Shown here in pieces: positions 2,988 through 8,772 of a stretch of 10,031 nt of DNA. Position 1 is the first letter of the stretch. The number at the start of each line of letters is the position of its first letter. Origin of the DNA: a virus; the UHGV virus genome UHGV-1820336; one strand, given 5' to 3'. Position numbers and translations under genes: made by a program. Below the pieces are notes generated by a model that searched no databases, was not told the DNA's origin, and was given only the letters and a program-made list of their open reading frames with translations.

Positions 2988-3929
2988 TTACATAGATGTT
3001 TCGTTTAATTCTTCCCGACGAACGCTGTAAACGTCGGTGGCTTTTGCCAGCAGTTCGTCATCATCTGAAAGTTTTTGTGCAATGTATTTGTAAGCCTTAT
3101 CCAGTTCGGAGACAGTGCTGTAATTCATCGCTGCGCTGGTAAAGGCCATCAGCATTTCTTCTGGATCACGGCTATCCGATTTACGCGTTTGCTCATCAGG
3201 CTTTTTCGCTGGTTTAGCGTTGATCAGACTGTTCATTCCCGCAGCAGTGGTCGTTTGCGGAGTAATGTCTCGCTCAACGCGCGGTGCCGTTTCCTGTAAT
3301 TCGTCTGGGGTGTAGACGCCCATGATTACGTCAGGACAGTGCAGGCGAGACCAGCGTTTTGTCGCAAGGTATGCGAGTTGTTGTTTCGGATCACTGGCCC
3401 AAAGTGTGGAGTTTCTTACCTGTGCTTGAGACAGCATTAACTCAAGCACTCGAGGTTGATCCTCGCCCTTCATGGTTGCCCATACGCGAACACCGCAGCC
3501 TTCTTCGTCTTTTAGAGTCCAGCCTGGTGCGATATATGGATTGCCGTTTTTGGATGTTTTCTCAACAAACTTACCGATCACGCGTTCCCACGGCCCGAAC
3601 CACTCGTAGTTGATGCGATCTTTTGTTGGCGACATCGTTGAGATAACTGCGTTTACTAATTGGGCTTCATAACCTAGCGTGCCGTTCACAACATGGGTTT
3701 TCTGAGCCACGGCAAACGGGTTCATTCCCCACTGCGCAGCCTGCATTGCCACGGCCATGCAATCAGCTGGTTTCCCGGCGAGGTGCGCCGGTACCGTTAC
3801 GCGGCTTTGCGCCATTACCTCGGCGAATTTCATCAGTTGGTTCAAGCCGTCTGGGCTGAAAATAGTTGCAGCAGTTCCAGCGATTGCTGTGTCTACTGGT
3901 GCGTTGATGTTTGCGATGTCGTTGCTCAT
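2988..3929 (-). CDS. Redbeta/Bet (RecT-superfamily) single-strand annealing recombinase
   Basis: Protein from MSNDIANINAP. Shares recognisable motifs with lambda Bet as recalled from memory: NPF/NPW, W-x-S-x-PK-x-x-L...KRW, GVYTPDE versus GIYDKDE, and ERDITP. ATG at 3929 overlaps the TGA of the upstream exonuclease gene (ATGA). Confidence 0.85.
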   Translation of the reverse strand: MSNDIANINAPVDTAIAGTAATIFSPDGLNQLMKFAEVMAQSRVTVPAHLAGKPADCMAVAMQAAQWGMNPFAVAQKTHVVNGTLGYEAQLVNAVISTMSPTKDRINYEWFGPWERVIGKFVEKTSKNGNPYIAPGWTLKDEEGCGVRVWATMKGEDQPRVLELMLSQAQVRNSTLWASDPKQQLAYLATKRWSRLHCPDVIMGVYTPDELQETAPRVERDITPQTTTAAGMNSLINAKPAKKPDEQTRKSDSRDPEEMLMAFTSAAMNYSTVSELDKAYKYIAQKLSDDDELLAKATDVYSVRREELNETSM

Positions 3930-4747
3930 ATGTACATATCCTGTTTGCGTGCCCACTCAGGGCGTTTAATGATTTCCACACCGCCCCATTCATCATTGAT
4001 ACGGCATTCGTGATAGGTATTCAGATCCCGGCGGAACAGAGCGTGCCCGGCATCGACATCCTGCGCATCCAGCTCGAACACGCGTACCGGATACCGACCA
4101 CAATCAATGCTTTCGCTCACGGCAAGAAAGAAAAAACCATGCGGCTGACCAGTAACCCTCATTGCGCCTTCGCGGTACATTGCGTCCTGCACGTGGTAGC
4201 GGAATTCCTCGATGTGGCGTGCAAAACGGTCCATATCTGCAACCTTTTTCACGTCGACGATCACGTTGTGCTCGTTCAGCCATTTGTCTGGACGAATTCG
4301 GCACAACTCCCCCGTCTCTTCATCGTTCCAGTACATTGATGCTTCGCAGTAACCAGGTGCTTCCAGCATCCAGCGTGCCGCCGGGTGAGCCATTGCGCTA
4401 TCACGCATCAGCTCCAGTTTCCGCCACTGCTCGGCATCAAGTACCGTAATCCCCATATCCGCCACATCACGAAGAAATTCCTCTTCGTCAGCTTTACCTT
4501 GTTTCGTCCGACGATCGAATTTCGGTGAAACAATGAAGCGTTTGTCGAACTCTCCAGGCTCCAGAAGCAGACAGTGCAATGCGGTTCCCATATCCAGTGC
4601 AGACTTTTTCTCTTCGTCTTCTGGTGCTGCCTGAACCCATTTAAGAAGCGCCGGATTCTTGGCAACCATGTCCAGTTGCGACTTACTCACGCCGTCACCG
4701 GCGTGGTAGTCTTCGTTGCTGATGTCGAAATAAATTCCCGGTTTCAT
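3926..4747 (-). CDS. PD-(D/E)XK family recombination exonuclease, RecE C-terminal-domain-like (DUF3799-type)
   Basis: 273 aa. N-terminus MKPGIYFDISNEDYHAGDGVSKSQLDMVAKNPALLKW...LDMGTALHCLLLEP is typical of RecE-like / exodeoxyribonuclease VIII-type phage nucleases. Sits immediately upstream of, and coupled to, the annealing protein. Family assignment from memory, not searched. Confidence 0.75.
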   Translation of the reverse strand: MKPGIYFDISNEDYHAGDGVSKSQLDMVAKNPALLKWVQAAPEDEEKKSALDMGTALHCLLLEPGEFDKRFIVSPKFDRRTKQGKADEEEFLRDVADMGITVLDAEQWRKLELMRDSAMAHPAARWMLEAPGYCEASMYWNDEETGELCRIRPDKWLNEHNVIVDVKKVADMDRFARHIEEFRYHVQDAMYREGAMRVTGQPHGFFFLAVSESIDCGRYPVRVFELDAQDVDAGHALFRRDLNTYHECRINDEWGGVEIIKRPEWARKQDMYI

Positions 4748-5351: not shown

Positions 5352-5936
5352 TTATTGTTTGTTTTTTTCGTTCTGGTTGATGACAAATTCAATGTAACTT
5401 TCGATCTTTGCTTTCTCGGTTTCGGGTAACAATGCGTAGCGCGAGCGATCATAGTTGATGGTCGCAGGGTCGTGCGGGTGAATCAGTAATTCATAGCCGT
5501 GACGCCCGAATGCGGATGCAACATTCTCCAGGGTGGAAATGGAAACGCTGACCTCATTGTTTAACAGGCGGCTGATTGTCACCTGGGCTACGCCGGATGC
5601 GCGGTGAAGTTTTCCCTGTGTTGAAAGGTCGCGGCTTTCGCTCATCCAGCGTTCCAGGTTGTGAGCCGCCAGCTGGCCAATGTCGCTTGGGCCGACAGGC
5701 TGAAAACCTTCCTGAGAAAGCGAGCGATCGATATCAAGCCAGTTACGGGGTTTATTGGCGGCAGCTTCAATTTTTCGTGCAACCTGGTCGCCGATAACCT
5801 TCTTGCCAAGAGCCCAGCGGTTTACCAGATTTGCCTGAGTTCCAAGTTTTTCAGCCATCCGCGTCTGAACACCATTGAATTCACGGTCGATCAAGTCGTT
5901 GAGATTTTGCCTGCGGACGTCCTGGATACTTTTCAT
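5352..5936 (-). CDS. Phage repressor (CI-like function) with two predicted helix-turn-helix regions and no LexA/S24 peptidase domain
   Basis: 194 aa. N-terminal segment QTRMAEKLGTQANLVNRWALGKKVIGDQVARKIEAAANKPRNWLD and a second segment RASGVAQVTISRLLNNEVSVSISTLENVASAFG both resemble XRE/CI-type HTH motifs. Divergent from a Cro-like gene with operator palindromes in between. No Ala-Gly / Ser-Lys peptidase motifs recognised. Confidence 0.8.
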   Translation of the reverse strand: MKSIQDVRRQNLNDLIDREFNGVQTRMAEKLGTQANLVNRWALGKKVIGDQVARKIEAAANKPRNWLDIDRSLSQEGFQPVGPSDIGQLAAHNLERWMSESRDLSTQGKLHRASGVAQVTISRLLNNEVSVSISTLENVASAFGRHGYELLIHPHDPATINYDRSRYALLPETEKAKIESYIEFVINQNEKNKQ

Positions 5937-5991: not shown

Positions 5992-6054
5992 TTACCCAAC
6001 AGGTAAATGCACCCCACAGGTAACTATCCTTGATTTTTGTTACCTTATGGGTGA
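5992..6054. promoter_or_regulatory. OR-like region: three operator sites plus candidate PR
   Basis: Perfect TTACC-CAACA-GGTAA at 5992-6006. Imperfect GCACC-CCACA-GGTAA at 6009-6023 and TTACC-TTATG-GGTGA at 6040-6054. Centre spacings 17 and 31 bp. Candidate rightward promoter TTGTTA (6037-6042) -17- TATTAT (6060-6065), with an alternative -35 TTGATT at 6030-6035; the third site overlaps it. Confidence 0.6.
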
Positions 6055-6090
6055 ATATTTATTATCTGAAATAAATATCAGGCAATAGCT

Positions 6091-6321
6091 ATGAGCGATA
6101 ACGGACATTTCGATTTCAAAAAGCACTGGCTTGCACTTACTCCGGATGAGCGTGAAGCCTTCGCACAGGAAGCCGGAACGACGAGTCACTATATCCAGAC
6201 TCACTTAACAGGTAAGCGCAAAATGCCAGGTAAGGTATTGATGAATGGGCTTTTTAAAGCCTGTAAAACAAGACAATGGCTGCGCTCAAAAGCAGAATTG
6301 GCATACTTCTTCTACTCATGA
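6091..6321 (+). CDS. Cro-like small DNA-binding protein (YdaS/DUF1019-like HTH)
   Basis: 76 aa. Divergent from the repressor gene across the operator region. Segment EAFAQEAGTTSHYIQTHLTGKRKMPGKVL resembles Cro/YdaS-type HTH proteins. Weak SD. Confidence 0.65.
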   Translation: MSDNGHFDFKKHWLALTPDEREAFAQEAGTTSHYIQTHLTGKRKMPGKVLMNGLFKACKTRQWLRSKAELAYFFYS

Positions 6322-6342: not shown

Positions 6343-6366
6343 AGACCGCCATCCGGCGGTCTTTTC
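6343..6366 (+). terminator. Rho-independent terminator after the Cro-like gene (tR1-like position)
   Basis: Stem AGACCGCC (6343-6350), loop ATCC, stem GGCGGTCT (6355-6362), followed by TTTTCAT. Confidence 0.6.
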
Positions 6367-6376
6367 ATATCTATTC

Positions 6377-6437
6377 GTACCTCAAAGGTAATAAAAAACC
6401 AAATCTGGTTGATCTTTTTTTTGTGTCAGCACAAAAT
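6377..6437 (+). promoter_or_regulatory. Operator-like site plus candidate promoter for the zinc-ribbon / O / P genes
   Basis: GTACC-TCAAA-GGTAA at 6377-6391 (9/10). Then 17 bp to a candidate -35 TTGATC (6409-6414), 17-nt spacer, candidate -10 CAAAAT (6432-6437). Promoter call is weak. Confidence 0.35.
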
Positions 6438-6471
6438 GACCGTAATCCCAATACTAATAACAGGGCTTACC

Positions 6472-6672
6472 ATGGAAATCATTACACGTATTGATGCCGC
6501 AAAGCGCGGACTTAAACGCTACTACACCGGAAAAACATGTAAGCACGGACATGACAGTGAACGCTGGGTTTACAACGGACACTGTGTTGAGTGCACCATG
6601 GAATCAAACCGTCGTATCAGGGCAGAGATTAAGCAGATCATGATTAATTCCTCCCCACAACATTCAAGCTGA
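6472..6672 (+). CDS. Small putative zinc-binding protein (66 aa)
   Basis: MEIITRIDAAKRGLKRYYTGKTCKHGHDSERWVYNGHCVEC...: Cys/His cluster C-x-H-x-H-x10-H-C-x2-C. Occupies the position cII has in lambda but shows no similarity to cII. An in-frame ATG at 6436 is an alternative start. No clear SD. Confidence 0.5.
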   Translation: MEIITRIDAAKRGLKRYYTGKTCKHGHDSERWVYNGHCVECTMESNRRIRAEIKQIMINSSPQHSS

Positions 6673-6687
6673 TAGCGGAGATTAATC

Positions 6688-7479
6688 ATGAGCAGACATG
6701 CAACAGATTGGGCCTGGGAGACAGATCCAGGTAGCTCATCATTAAAGCTCATACTGCTCTCGATGGCTGACAGAGCCGATGAATATAACCTCTGCTACCC
6801 CAGCATAGAACGCCTCGTTAAAGACACTTGCCTGAATAAAAAAACCGTGCAGGCCGGGCTTATATCGCTCATGAAAATGGGGCTTATTTCAGATACCGGA
6901 GAGAGAAAGGGAGCGACAAAAAGAGTGCGGGTTTTCTCTCTTAATATAACCAAAAACGGGAACATTAAAGGCAACCGGGAGGGGGGCAATGAACCCGAAA
7001 ACGGGAATATACCCGAAAACGGGAATATACCCAAAAACGGGATGTTGAATGATCCCAAAAACGGGATCCAGAACCAGTCATATAACCAGTCATTTAACCA
7101 AGAGAGGGAGAGCAGGACAAAAAGCGGGGATTCTGTGCCTCATGACCCCGGAGCAAACAACGCCGTGATGAATAACTTTGTTCCTCCTGGTGGGCCAGGG
7201 CAATTAGGCAAATTTGTCATGCATGAACAATGGCAGCCATCAGATGACTTTCTTCGGAAAAGCTCATTGCAGGGGATCTACCTGGACAGTCTGCCAACGG
7301 CACAGGAACTTGCAGAGTTCAGAATTTACTGGATGGCTGAGGGTAAGGCATACCATCAGGCACAGTGGGAGCAGAAGCTGGCAAGGCGGCTGCAGATTAG
7401 CAGACAGAAGCAATCAACATTACCTGATAACAACGTTCCGCACTGGAACAGCCCTGAAGCATGGGAGGATTTCTTGTGA
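6688..7479 (+). CDS. Replication initiator, lambda O-like (N-terminal HTH DNA-binding domain; origin iterons embedded in the linker region)
   Basis: 263 aa. N-terminus WAWETDPGSSSLKLILLSMADRADEYNLCYPSIERLVKDTCLNKKTVQAGLISLMKMGLI is typical of phage replication-initiator HTH domains. Central low-complexity KNG/ENG repeat is encoded by the iterons. SD GGAG 7 nt upstream. The next gene is P-like. Confidence 0.8.
   Translation: MSRHATDWAWETDPGSSSLKLILLSMADRADEYNLCYPSIERLVKDTCLNKKTVQAGLISLMKMGLISDTGERKGATKRVRVFSLNITKNGNIKGNREGGNEPENGNIPENGNIPKNGMLNDPKNGIQNQSYNQSFNQERESRTKSGDSVPHDPGANNAVMNNFVPPGGPGQLGKFVMHEQWQPSDDFLRKSSLQGIYLDSLPTAQELAEFRIYWMAEGKAYHQAQWEQKLARRLQISRQKQSTLPDNNVPHWNSPEAWEDFL
6950..7068. 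repeat. Candidate replication origin: iterons CC(C)RAAAACGGGA, palindromic core CCCG-AAAAC-GGG
   Basis: Copies start at 6950, 6994, 7012, 7030 and 7054. 6994-7011 and 7012-7029 are an exact 18-bp tandem duplicate, CCCGAAAACGGGAATATA. Followed by a 12-bp direct repeat AACCAGTCAT(A/T)T at 7072-7095. Resembles the lambda ori iteron design (recalled as TCCCTCAAAACGAGGGA) located inside the O gene. Confidence 0.7.
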
Positions 7480-8261
7480 ACAACGTTTTTACCGCGATAC
7501 AAAACCGTGACGGAGAAGCCCTTTCTCGCATGTCAGGTTATGAGCATCAGTACGTCAACAATGACAATGTGGTGAACATGTCAGCAGAGAGGCTTGTTGA
7601 TGCCCTTTTTAAACAGCTGAAACAACTGTTTCCGGCGGCAGTGGTAACCAACCTGAAGACGCCAGAGCAGGAAGTTGCTGCAAAACAGCAGTGGATTGCT
7701 GCGTTTGCCGAAGGGGGGATCCGAACCCGTGAACAGGTTTCTGCTGGTATGCGCCACGCCCGCGCCAGTGAATCTCCGTTCTGGCCGTCTCCAGGGCAAT
7801 TTATCAAGTGGTGCAAAGACAGCAAGATGGTTCTTGGCGTCACCATTGACGATGTGATGGCGGAGTTTCACCGGTACAGCAAGGAAAAAAGTTTATATCC
7901 TGGTGGTCCCGAAAGATTCCCGTGGCGACATCCGGTTATGTACTGGGTCGTATGTGATACCCGCCGTGCAATGTATCAGCGCCAGCTTAGCGAGATTGAG
8001 GTTGAGAAACACGCACGCAGGCTGCTCGATGATTGGGCGAAAAAGGTGGCTTCCGGACAGCAGATACCCGATCCGGTGATCAGCATACAGGCAAAGCCAG
8101 AGCCCATGAGTACGCCTCCGGACACAGGGAGAGACGTTTACCATCCACCAGGGCGAAGTTTCGGGTGCATGCCTAACGCCGCCACCCTTGGGGGAATAAC
8201 ACCGGCGCAGTGGCTGATGGAGGAATACAGGCGGGGAAAGGCGGCAGGATTTATCAAGTAA
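7476..8261 (+). CDS. Replication protein P-like helicase loader
   Basis: AAFAEGGIRTREQVSAGMRHARASESPFWPSPGQFIKWCK aligns with lambda P as recalled from memory (LAFRENGITTMEQVNAGMRVARRQNRPFLPSPGQFVAWCR). Start taken as GTG 7476 (SD GGAGGA 7464-7469, overlapping the O-like stop in GTGA). The in-frame ATG at 7461 is an alternative. Confidence 0.85.
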   Translation: MNNVFTAIQNRDGEALSRMSGYEHQYVNNDNVVNMSAERLVDALFKQLKQLFPAAVVTNLKTPEQEVAAKQQWIAAFAEGGIRTREQVSAGMRHARASESPFWPSPGQFIKWCKDSKMVLGVTIDDVMAEFHRYSKEKSLYPGGPERFPWRHPVMYWVVCDTRRAMYQRQLSEIEVEKHARRLLDDWAKKVASGQQIPDPVISIQAKPEPMSTPPDTGRDVYHPPGRSFGCMPNAATLGGITPAQWLMEEYRRGKAAGFIK

Positions 8262-8378: not shown

Positions 8379-8723
8379 ATGAGAAAACAGATACAGGCTC
8401 TTGGTCGACTCAAAACAGGTCAGATGAACAAAACAGAATCTGCGTATTGCCAGCACCTTGAGCTGCGTAAACGTGCAGGAGAAATCGTCTGGTATCGATT
8501 TGAGGGTATCAAGCTGCGGTTAGCTGACAACACGTTCTATACGCCCGATTTTGCTGTGATGCTCGCCACCGGCGAGATGGAACTGCACGAAGTGAAAGGT
8601 TTCTGGACCGACGACGCCAGGGTGAAAACCAAAGTCGCCGCAGATCAGTATCCGTTCCGAATCATCGGGGTAACGGTTAAACCAAAGAAAGCAGGTGGTG
8701 GCTGGATCATCGAAGAGTTCTGA
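8379..8723 (+). CDS. DUF1064-like phage protein with a PD-(D/E)XK-type motif
   Basis: 114 aa. Pattern E-x2-Y-x3-LE...G-E-I...YTPDF-x-V...ELHEVKG...K-x-K...YPF matches, from memory, the conserved layout of DUF1064 phage proteins (D...E-x-K nuclease-like core). Not verified by search. Confidence 0.7.
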   Translation: MRKQIQALGRLKTGQMNKTESAYCQHLELRKRAGEIVWYRFEGIKLRLADNTFYTPDFAVMLATGEMELHEVKGFWTDDARVKTKVAADQYPFRIIGVTVKPKKAGGGWIIEEF

Positions 8724-8739
8724 ATCGACGATCTTTTTA

Positions 8740-8772
8740 GTTATCAATGTTATCAATAAGTTATGTGGATAA
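8740..8772. promoter_or_regulatory. Tandem GTTATCAAT repeats plus a perfect DnaA-box consensus (TTATCCACA on the - strand) upstream of the 8785 gene
   Basis: GTTATCAAT at 8740-8748 and 8749-8757; TGTGGATAA at 8764-8772 is the reverse complement of TTATCCACA. Immediately upstream of SD GAGGGT and ATG at 8785. Functional role inferred. Confidence 0.3.

Follow-up and report, generated by a model that had tools for sequence, protein, structure and literature searches.

A probable replication origin of a phiV10/epsilon15-like prophage, formed by phi80-type iterons within its initiator gene

In the 10,031-nucleotide (nt) stretch of the viral genome UHGV-1820336 analysed here (the window), a replication initiator gene carries in its middle an array of five short, dyad-symmetric repeats (iterons). 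This array is very probably the replication origin of a phiV10/epsilon15-like prophage, placed inside the gene of its own initiator. The reading is strongly supported because the repeat motif is conserved as DNA in three reading frames, follows the N-terminal domain of the initiator from phage to phage, and matches the annotated origin of phage phi80. Lambdoid origins (ori-lambda/ori-phi80 type) have at least four dyad-symmetric repeats between the regions coding for the N- and C-terminal domains, a repeat constrained as DNA rather than as peptide, and a P-type loader gene directly downstream of the initiator; the window has all of these, with five repeat copies. Judged from these sequence comparisons, its assignment as a new member of a known origin type is well supported, and the feature itself appears fairly ordinary. 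A preliminary description of this DNA had proposed a lambda-type origin embedded in the initiator gene. The comparative evidence for that design (frames, N-terminal link, phi80 match and downstream P-like loader) is strong, and origin function is what we infer from it. The elements concerned are the following.

6688–7479, plus strand: replication initiator gene, 263 amino acids (aa); open reading frame (ORF) with Pfam HTH_36 and DnaT matches; PHROG 1032 'replication initiation protein', E 7e-103.
6688–6951, plus strand: N-terminal winged helix-turn-helix (HTH) domain, aa 1–88; Pfam HTH_36 (PF13730) at aa 18–67.
6949–6960, plus strand: iteron 1, core ACCAAAAACGGG; direct reading and pattern search.
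6994–7005, plus strand: iteron 2, core CCCGAAAACGGG; identical to the core of a phi80 gp15 site.
7012–7023, plus strand: iteron 3, core CCCGAAAACGGG; within an exact 18-base-pair (bp) duplicate of iteron 2.
7030–7041, plus strand: iteron 4, core CCCAAAAACGGG; same as the family consensus.
7054–7065, plus strand: iteron 5, core CCCAAAAACGGG; the last iteron, with a GATC overlapping its 3' flank.
7067–7105, plus strand: candidate unwinding element, CAGAACCAGTCAT-AT-AACCAGTCAT-TT-AACCAAGAG; Tandem Repeats Finder, stability and GAAYC frequency.
7201–7458, plus strand: C-terminal DnaT-like single-stranded DNA (ssDNA)-binding domain, aa 172–257; Pfam PF17948 and phmmer.
7461–8261, plus strand: lambda-P-type helicase loader gene; Pfam PF06992, E 1.5e-56; PHROG 109; overlaps the initiator stop.

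The pattern [A/C]CC[A/G]AAAACGGG occurs five times at 6949–7065 (starts 6949, 6994, 7012, 7030 and 7054), compared with 0.10 matches expected by chance, and none of 200 shuffled sequences reached five copies. The palindromic cores reported in the preliminary description are real as five copies of a CCC(G)...(C)GGG dyad, of which just two have the full CCCG/CGGG arms. The exact 18-bp tandem duplicate that it listed, ACCCGAAAACGGGAATAT, is present at 6993–7010 and 7011–7028, and Tandem Repeats Finder reports there an 18-bp unit in 2.8 copies (6993–7042). With their flanks, iterons 2 and 3 read ATATACCCG-AAAA-CGGGAATAT, a dyad of about 22 bp, and at a spacing of 18 bp these dyads of the central iterons overlap their neighbours by 4 bp. 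The array codes for aa 88–126, between HTH_36 (aa 18–67) and the DnaT domain (aa 176–244), which confirms the inter-domain position first assigned to it, and it is the sole multi-copy repeat cluster of the 10-kb window.

The iteron sequence itself is an old acquaintance. The phi80 record (JX871397) has four gp15 binding sites in gene 15 (AACCGGAAACGGGAA, TTCCCGAAAACGGGAA, TTCCCGAAATCAGGAA and TTCCCGAAAACGGTA), and the site TTCCCGAAAACGGGAA shares the 14-bp CCCGAAAACGGGAA with window positions 6994–7007 and 7012–7025; iterons 2 and 3 have the core CCCGAAAACGGG with flanking A/T that marks the phi80 type. Because of this 14-bp identity, the window iteron is of phi80 type and not a new sequence. 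The claim of a different iteron sequence thus holds against the CCC-N9-GGG repeats of lambda but not in general, the 12–14-bp core being identical to the phi80 gp15 sites. The distinct initiator specificity that was deduced from it would likewise apply relative to lambda only, since the core is shared with phi80.

All five iterons of the window share one frame and encode TKNG, PENG, PENG, PKNG and PKNG. The repeats could accordingly be imagined as a peptide feature, a flexible N/G-rich inter-domain linker grown by slippage whose DNA sequence has no role, and both the single KNG/ENG-coding frame and the variation of copy number by whole units would suit this. Among close relatives (88–94% protein identity) the differences are nearly all whole repeat units, with 5–11 KNG/ENG units (commonest 7), and 80 phiV10-like viral contigs carry 4–9 iteron copies (mode 6); whole-unit change alone would fit any tandem repeat. 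The evidence against the peptide explanation comes from more diverged phages. GF-2 (Edwardsiella), PPompW (an Escherichia coli prophage), Her (Vibrio) and AP22 (Acinetobacter), which have 46–57% identity over the first ~88 residues, all possess arrays that lie 260–470 nt inside the gene and use frames 0, 1 and 2. Their core variants (CCCAAAAACGGG, CCCAAAATTGGG, CCCAAATTTGGG, CCCATATACGGG and CCCGAAAACGG) retain the CCC...GGG dyad while the encoded residues vary (PKNG, PKIG, PKFG, PIYG), and some of their iterons lie in other frames and encode TQKRD, TQKRE or DPKTE.

We extended the comparison with an N-terminal-domain profile, applied to a single genome from each species, which yielded 80 loci spanning Gamma-, Beta- and Alphaproteobacteria and Desulfovibrionia; a scan of viral contigs gave near-identical loci only, and the diverse loci were taken from genome contigs. 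The array test was an unbiased one: within 400 nt behind the N-terminal domain, it took whichever 12-mer was repeated most, allowing 2 mismatches at most. At least four copies of one 12-mer were present in 56 of 64 loci from different species (mode 6, maximum 11). Of 314 control windows taken within these loci, only 4 had as many and none had five. The seeds of these 12-mers were nearly all CC[C/G]AAAAACGG variants, and iteron spacings peaked at 17, 18, 24 and 33 bp across loci, 17 bp being commonest, which brings copies into each of the three reading frames. More than one reading frame of a single open gene was used in 35 of the 42 loci with at least three strict sites; one locus (L107) has 11 copies in frames 1,0,1,0,2,0,1,0,2,0,0.

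Since the same motif lies in several frames and encodes differing peptides, the sequences indicate that the repeats are selected as DNA and that the KNG/ENG peptide repeat of the window is a by-product. The latter is indeed encoded, as the preliminary description had stated, but is incidental, the motif of relatives encoding TQKR, DPKT, FPKT and others. A 12-bp motif whose copies, spaced by 17, 22 and 25 bp, occupy all three frames of individual open genes, and which keeps its CCC...GGG dyad while it specifies peptides as unrelated as PKNG, TQKR, DPKT, FPKT, PKIG, PKFG and PIYG, leaves the peptide explanation next to no credit, and we reject it as contradicted by the frame analysis. Conservation at the protein level only, which the preliminary description had named as an outcome that would speak against an origin, is contradicted by the same three-frame occurrence with differing peptides. 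Its proposed comparison across prophages gave a core that is kept, in 4–11 copies that change by whole units.

The initiator is annotated in relatives as 'DnaT-like ssDNA-binding domain-containing protein' or 'replication initiation protein' and is 93% identical to phiV10 p43. Its N-terminal winged-HTH domain, presumed to be the iteron-binding domain, is conserved in an alignment of five diverged phages and has 567 cluster representatives at E ≤ 1e-10. The C-terminus matches E. coli DnaT chains (9zbt, 6aep and 4ou6; phmmer E 6.5e-21) and has no lambda-O-type (P-binding) domain. Pfam gives HTH_36 and DnaT, not Phage_rep_O/Phg_2220_C, with no PF04492 match to the lambda O family, and BLASTP found no similarity to lambda O or phi80 gp15. 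The gene is therefore 'O-like', as it had been called, in role and layout but not in family. A sequence search of the PDB with the N-terminal domain gave no significant match, and AlphaFold2 on the single initiator sequence gave an unusable model with a mean predicted local distance difference test score of 38. The P-like protein encoded next to it is 35% identical to phi80 gp14 and 31% identical to lambda P.

Whatever the remainder of the protein, the array comes with the N-terminal domain: a DnaT-like C-terminus in the window and PPompW, a lambda-O-type one in GF-2 (62% identity to lambda O residues 156–299), or others in AP22 and Her. Among 150 cluster representatives with the N-terminal domain, 140 have HTH_36, 17 a DnaT C-terminus and 2 Phg_2220_C. 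Enterobacter phage Tyrion and Salmonella phage SPN1S have a DnaT-like C-terminus with a different N-terminus, and in these the array is absent. In the gene 'O' of Min27, a more distant HTH_36 initiator (29% identity), three 21-bp repeats of GGGGTGGGGCAGGAGCTGCCC occupy the same gene position (1790–1855 of locus L170) and probably represent another unannotated origin of different specificity. This co-occurrence is the pattern that would be expected for a binding site and its binding domain. The divergence of P follows the C-terminal type of the initiator: GF-2 P, 55% identical to lambda P, is paired with a lambda-type C-terminus, and the P proteins of the window (31% to lambda P) and Tyrion (86% identical to window P) are both paired with DnaT-type C-termini, which is consistent with a contact between C-terminus and P.

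One may ask whether the core is read by a host protein or another phage protein instead of the initiator N-terminal domain. Such a reader would explain why phi80 gp15 and the window initiator, distinct in Pfam and with N-terminal domains of no detectable similarity, share an identical 12–14-bp core. However, array and N-terminal domain are strictly found together, the array being gone once the domain is replaced, and the more distant HTH_36 domain of Min27 has a different repeat. Lambda O, moreover, binds its related repeats directly (Tsurimoto & Matsubara 1981, as cited in PMC5509034). Because a PF13730 match of the N-terminus of lambda O is reported from HHpred (Brezellec et al. 2017, PMC5509034), deep homology of the N-terminal domains with a frozen DNA specificity is the simplest reading of the shared core, and we consider another reader very improbable.

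Two side observations are recorded here. The last ~15 residues of the initiator, VPHWNSPEAWEDFL (window 7433–7479), are identical in Tyrion (L006 ~1960–2007), the remaining C-terminal domain being 36% identical, and DNA homology with Tyrion begins 28 nt upstream of the P start codon; because of this starting point, the sequences appear to mark a recombination junction at the initiator/P boundary. A circular E. coli 'plasmid' of 8461 bp (NZ_CP148379.1, locus L172) has as its only replication-type genes a cro-like gene, YdaT, a PPompW-type initiator and a short P, with three CCCAAAAACGG[G/A] sites at 6630–6796, all inside the initiator gene. It resembles a natural lambda-dv-like mini-replicon and may lend circumstantial support, or may be an assembly artefact (its source is given as 'single cell').

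Directly after the last iteron the window carries a second kind of repeat, a 12-bp unit in 2.4 copies at 7072–7100 (Tandem Repeats Finder; copies AACCAGTCATAT and AACCAGTCATTT at 7072–7095). Nearly every locus has at this place two to three tandem 11–13-mers of the GAAYCTAYCA or GAACCAGTCA type, often with an A-run at the end. Behind the last iteron, GAAYC has a frequency of 2.1 per 70 nt (controls, 0.09), 28 of 42 loci have it in tandem (controls, 33 of 350), and the element is DNA common to loci whose last iteron lies in different frames. A+T content at +10 to +50 after the last iteron is 63–65%, compared with a locus mean of 56%. In the window itself the repeat at 7072–7095 has 67% A+T (40-nt segments, ~42% GC), and the 40 bp from 7066 are within the least stable 2% of the gene by nearest-neighbour energies; in phi80 gene 15 the stability minimum begins exactly at the last iteron and is deeper. 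It is therefore plausible, judging from sequence and composition, that the GAAYC stretch at 7067–7105 is an unwinding or loading element, weak by composition. The AT-leaning direct repeat of the preliminary description exists as this 12-bp repeat, but its AT-richness was overstated (67%, and ~58% in 40-nt windows), and the name of a conserved GAAYC tandem element suits it better.

Other signals lie close to the array. The last iteron shares its 3' edge with a GATC (GGGATCC, window 7062–7068), and enterobacterial relatives again have GATCT in the third of their downstream repeats (..AAAGATCTAAA..; loci L130, L141, L142, L146, L153 and L156). GATC/GATCT near the last iteron resembles the 13-mers of oriC, and control by Dam/SeqA is possible. 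Directly left of iteron 1, at 6920–6950, a low-stability spot (TTCTCTCTTAATATAACC) is slightly less stable than the right-hand flank; in the family-wide profiles, consistent AT enrichment left of iteron 1 is absent.

The repeats might also be initiator sites for autoregulation, titration or copy control only, with replication beginning elsewhere in the phage. Plasmid iterons do act in copy control as well (PMC4980987), and the flank adjoining the array is compositionally weak as an unwinding candidate. On the other hand, position and layout match the mapped lambda and annotated phi80 origins, the core is identical to that of phi80, the last iteron is followed at once by a conserved tandem element and by a local minimum of stability, and the 10-kb early region is without any other repeat cluster. 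A purely regulatory array is in our view unlikely.

With the array taken as the origin, initiation may be pictured by analogy with lambda O and phi80. Early rightward transcription would provide the initiator and the P-like loader. Initiator dimers would bind the five dyad iterons (6949–7065) through their N-terminal winged-HTH domains, giving an O-some-like complex, and the resulting strain would open the adjacent less stable stretch of tandem AACCAGTCAT repeats at 7067–7105. The C-terminal DnaT-like domain would then hold ssDNA and/or dock the P-like protein, whereby host DnaB helicase would be delivered.

Several points weigh against an origin at this place. Binding, unwinding and replication are all inferred, and our literature search found no experiment on any HTH_36-family member; a search on the iteron string, phiV10, epsilon15 and the phi80 origin returned no paper describing the origin of the window. 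For homology of the N-terminal domain to lambda O/phi80 gp15, hhalign gave a probability of only 16% when the profile held 5 sequences and 7.7% when it held 142, the published HHpred assignment being the one result in its favour, although these comparisons, at their low probability of 8–16%, place the HTH-wing segments of the initiator and of lambda O/gp15 equivalently. The flank has ~58–67% A+T and a stability only at the 92nd–95th percentile of the whole window, and is much weaker than the 38-bp AT tract of lambda. Polymorphism among 44 haplotypes of phiV10-like genes showed no added constraint on core third positions (3 of 24 variable versus 33 of 210 in the rest of the gene, p=1), in a test that was powerless. 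Finally, the small circular record NZ_CP148379.1 may, as said, be an artefact.

One may further speculate that the CCCRAAAACGGG iteron and the GAAYC repeat form one ancient mobile origin cassette, spread among prophages of Alpha-, Beta- and Gammaproteobacteria and Desulfovibrionia and served by N-terminal domains that are no longer similar (phi80 gp15 and HTH_36). According to this speculation, which we hold to be doubtful, GAAYC would be a previously undescribed, specific unwinding/loading element and not a generic AT tract. If it were true, phages as unrelated in appearance as phi80 and the phiV10-like prophages could each fire, titrate or exclude the origin of the other.

By gene content, Pfam and PHROG, the window represents the early region of an E. 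coli prophage of phiV10/epsilon15-like type (Uetakevirus). Its other features are listed below.

193–1443: integrase.
2988–3956, minus strand: RecT.
3926–4747, minus strand: PDDEXK nuclease.
5352–5936, minus strand: repressor-like gene with two HTH motifs.
6037–6065, plus strand: candidate pR-like promoter, 9/12 match in a consensus scan; would drive the cro-like gene, the initiator and P.
6091–6321: cro-like gene.
6343–6362, plus strand: candidate tR1-like intrinsic terminator between the cro-like gene and the replication genes (terminator scan).
6409–6672: small ORF.
8379–8723: DUF1064 gene.

The phiV10 record has an annotated terminator at the position equivalent to 6343–6362; in the promoter and terminator scan of the window the number of such sites was no higher than chance, and Rfam and tRNA scans of the window gave no matches. 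The 1.7-kb initiator-P region has 96–99% DNA identity with phiV10 and several other E. coli phages, 96% in the case of phiV10, and was found in 543 of 5426 complete E. coli genomes (~10%). We looked for an origin annotation in the phiV10 record and found none there.

The RecT and PDDEXK nuclease ORFs (2988–4747, minus strand) overlap in different frames over a total of 1760 nt, and their phiV10 counterpart is a single fused RecE-RecT coding sequence of 1761 nt. The 1-nt length difference therefore reflects either a frameshift in the window or an error or fusion in phiV10. In the intergenic region 3' of the DUF1064 gene (8740–8757), the 9-bp GTTATCAAT is exactly repeated twice in tandem. Complete phiV10-like genomes of 38.7–41 kb are deposited as plasmid records (NZ_CP076267.1, NZ_CP079771.1 and NZ_CP079768.1), and strain NADC1036 has a chromosomal phiV10-like copy besides its plasmid record; such records suggest extrachromosomal or induced phage DNA in the cultures.

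Modestly new are three points: how widely HTH_36 initiators carry this iteron core conserved, the fact that the core is found in each of the three frames, and the GAAYC repeats downstream of it. The finding places the origin of phiV10/epsilon15-like E. coli prophages, present in ~10% of complete genomes and with none annotated in their records. It also offers a simple sequence rule for finding origins in hundreds of HTH_36-initiator prophage families: one looks directly behind the N-terminal domain for an array of CCCAAAAACGGG and, after it, for tandem GAAYC repeats. Moreover, it is a clean case in which a DNA signal is preserved although the reading frame that overlaps it varies. With a core that phi80 has as well, the question arises of cross-specificity or incompatibility between phages with unrelated-looking initiators.

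Among known systems, phi80 is similar in having its iterons within the initiator gene, an identical core CCCGAAAACGGG(AA), an A-run of equal orientation relative to transcription and a following P-type loader, gp14 (35% identical to window P). It differs in that gp15 is a Phage_rep_O plus lambda-O-type protein, 39% identical to lambda O, and in that its four sites are spaced by 20–21 bp, read in another frame (FPKTG) and flanked by a clearly AT-rich stretch and a lambda-like palindrome. The lambda record has four iterons (ATCCCTCAAAACGAGGGA and variants) within O, followed by an AT-rich tract. Lambda and the window both place the origin in mid-initiator gene, between a DNA-binding N-terminus and a loader-binding C-terminus with P next, and both have dyad-symmetric iterons with a CCC..AAAAC..GGG skeleton. 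However, the lambda iterons are CCC-N9-GGG and those of the window CCC-N6-GGG, the 38-bp high-AT tract of lambda is replaced by tandem 12-mers of modest AT content, and O belongs to PF04492 (plus PF09524 by published HHpred, PMC5509034) whereas the window initiator belongs to PF13730 and PF17948. The lambda origin within O has four iterons, compared with six in Shiga toxin (Stx) phages (PMC7466680, PMC3349717). Stx phages P27 and 933W thus resemble the present family in that iteron number varies between related phages (6 versus 4) and the initiator linker lengthens (PMC7466680), but their iterons and O proteins are of lambda type.

The DopC/DopE pair, domesticated in Cellvibrionales and Oceanospirillales and reported without iterons (Brezellec et al. 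2017, PMC5509034), combines an HTH_36 N-terminus and DnaT C-terminal motif with an adjacent lambda-P-like protein (PMC5509034), as the window does. Those are resident chromosomal genes, whereas the window pair lies in a prophage (integrase, RecT, repressor/cro, phiV10 synteny) and has iterons; the reported lack of iterons in DopC agrees with a role as origin that genes working for the chromosome can do without. E. coli DnaT (primosomal protein I) aligns through its residues 85–170 with initiator aa 172–257. Unlike the window protein, it acts in PriA-dependent restart and is without HTH domain or iterons, whereas in the window the DnaT-like domain is fused to an origin-binding module.

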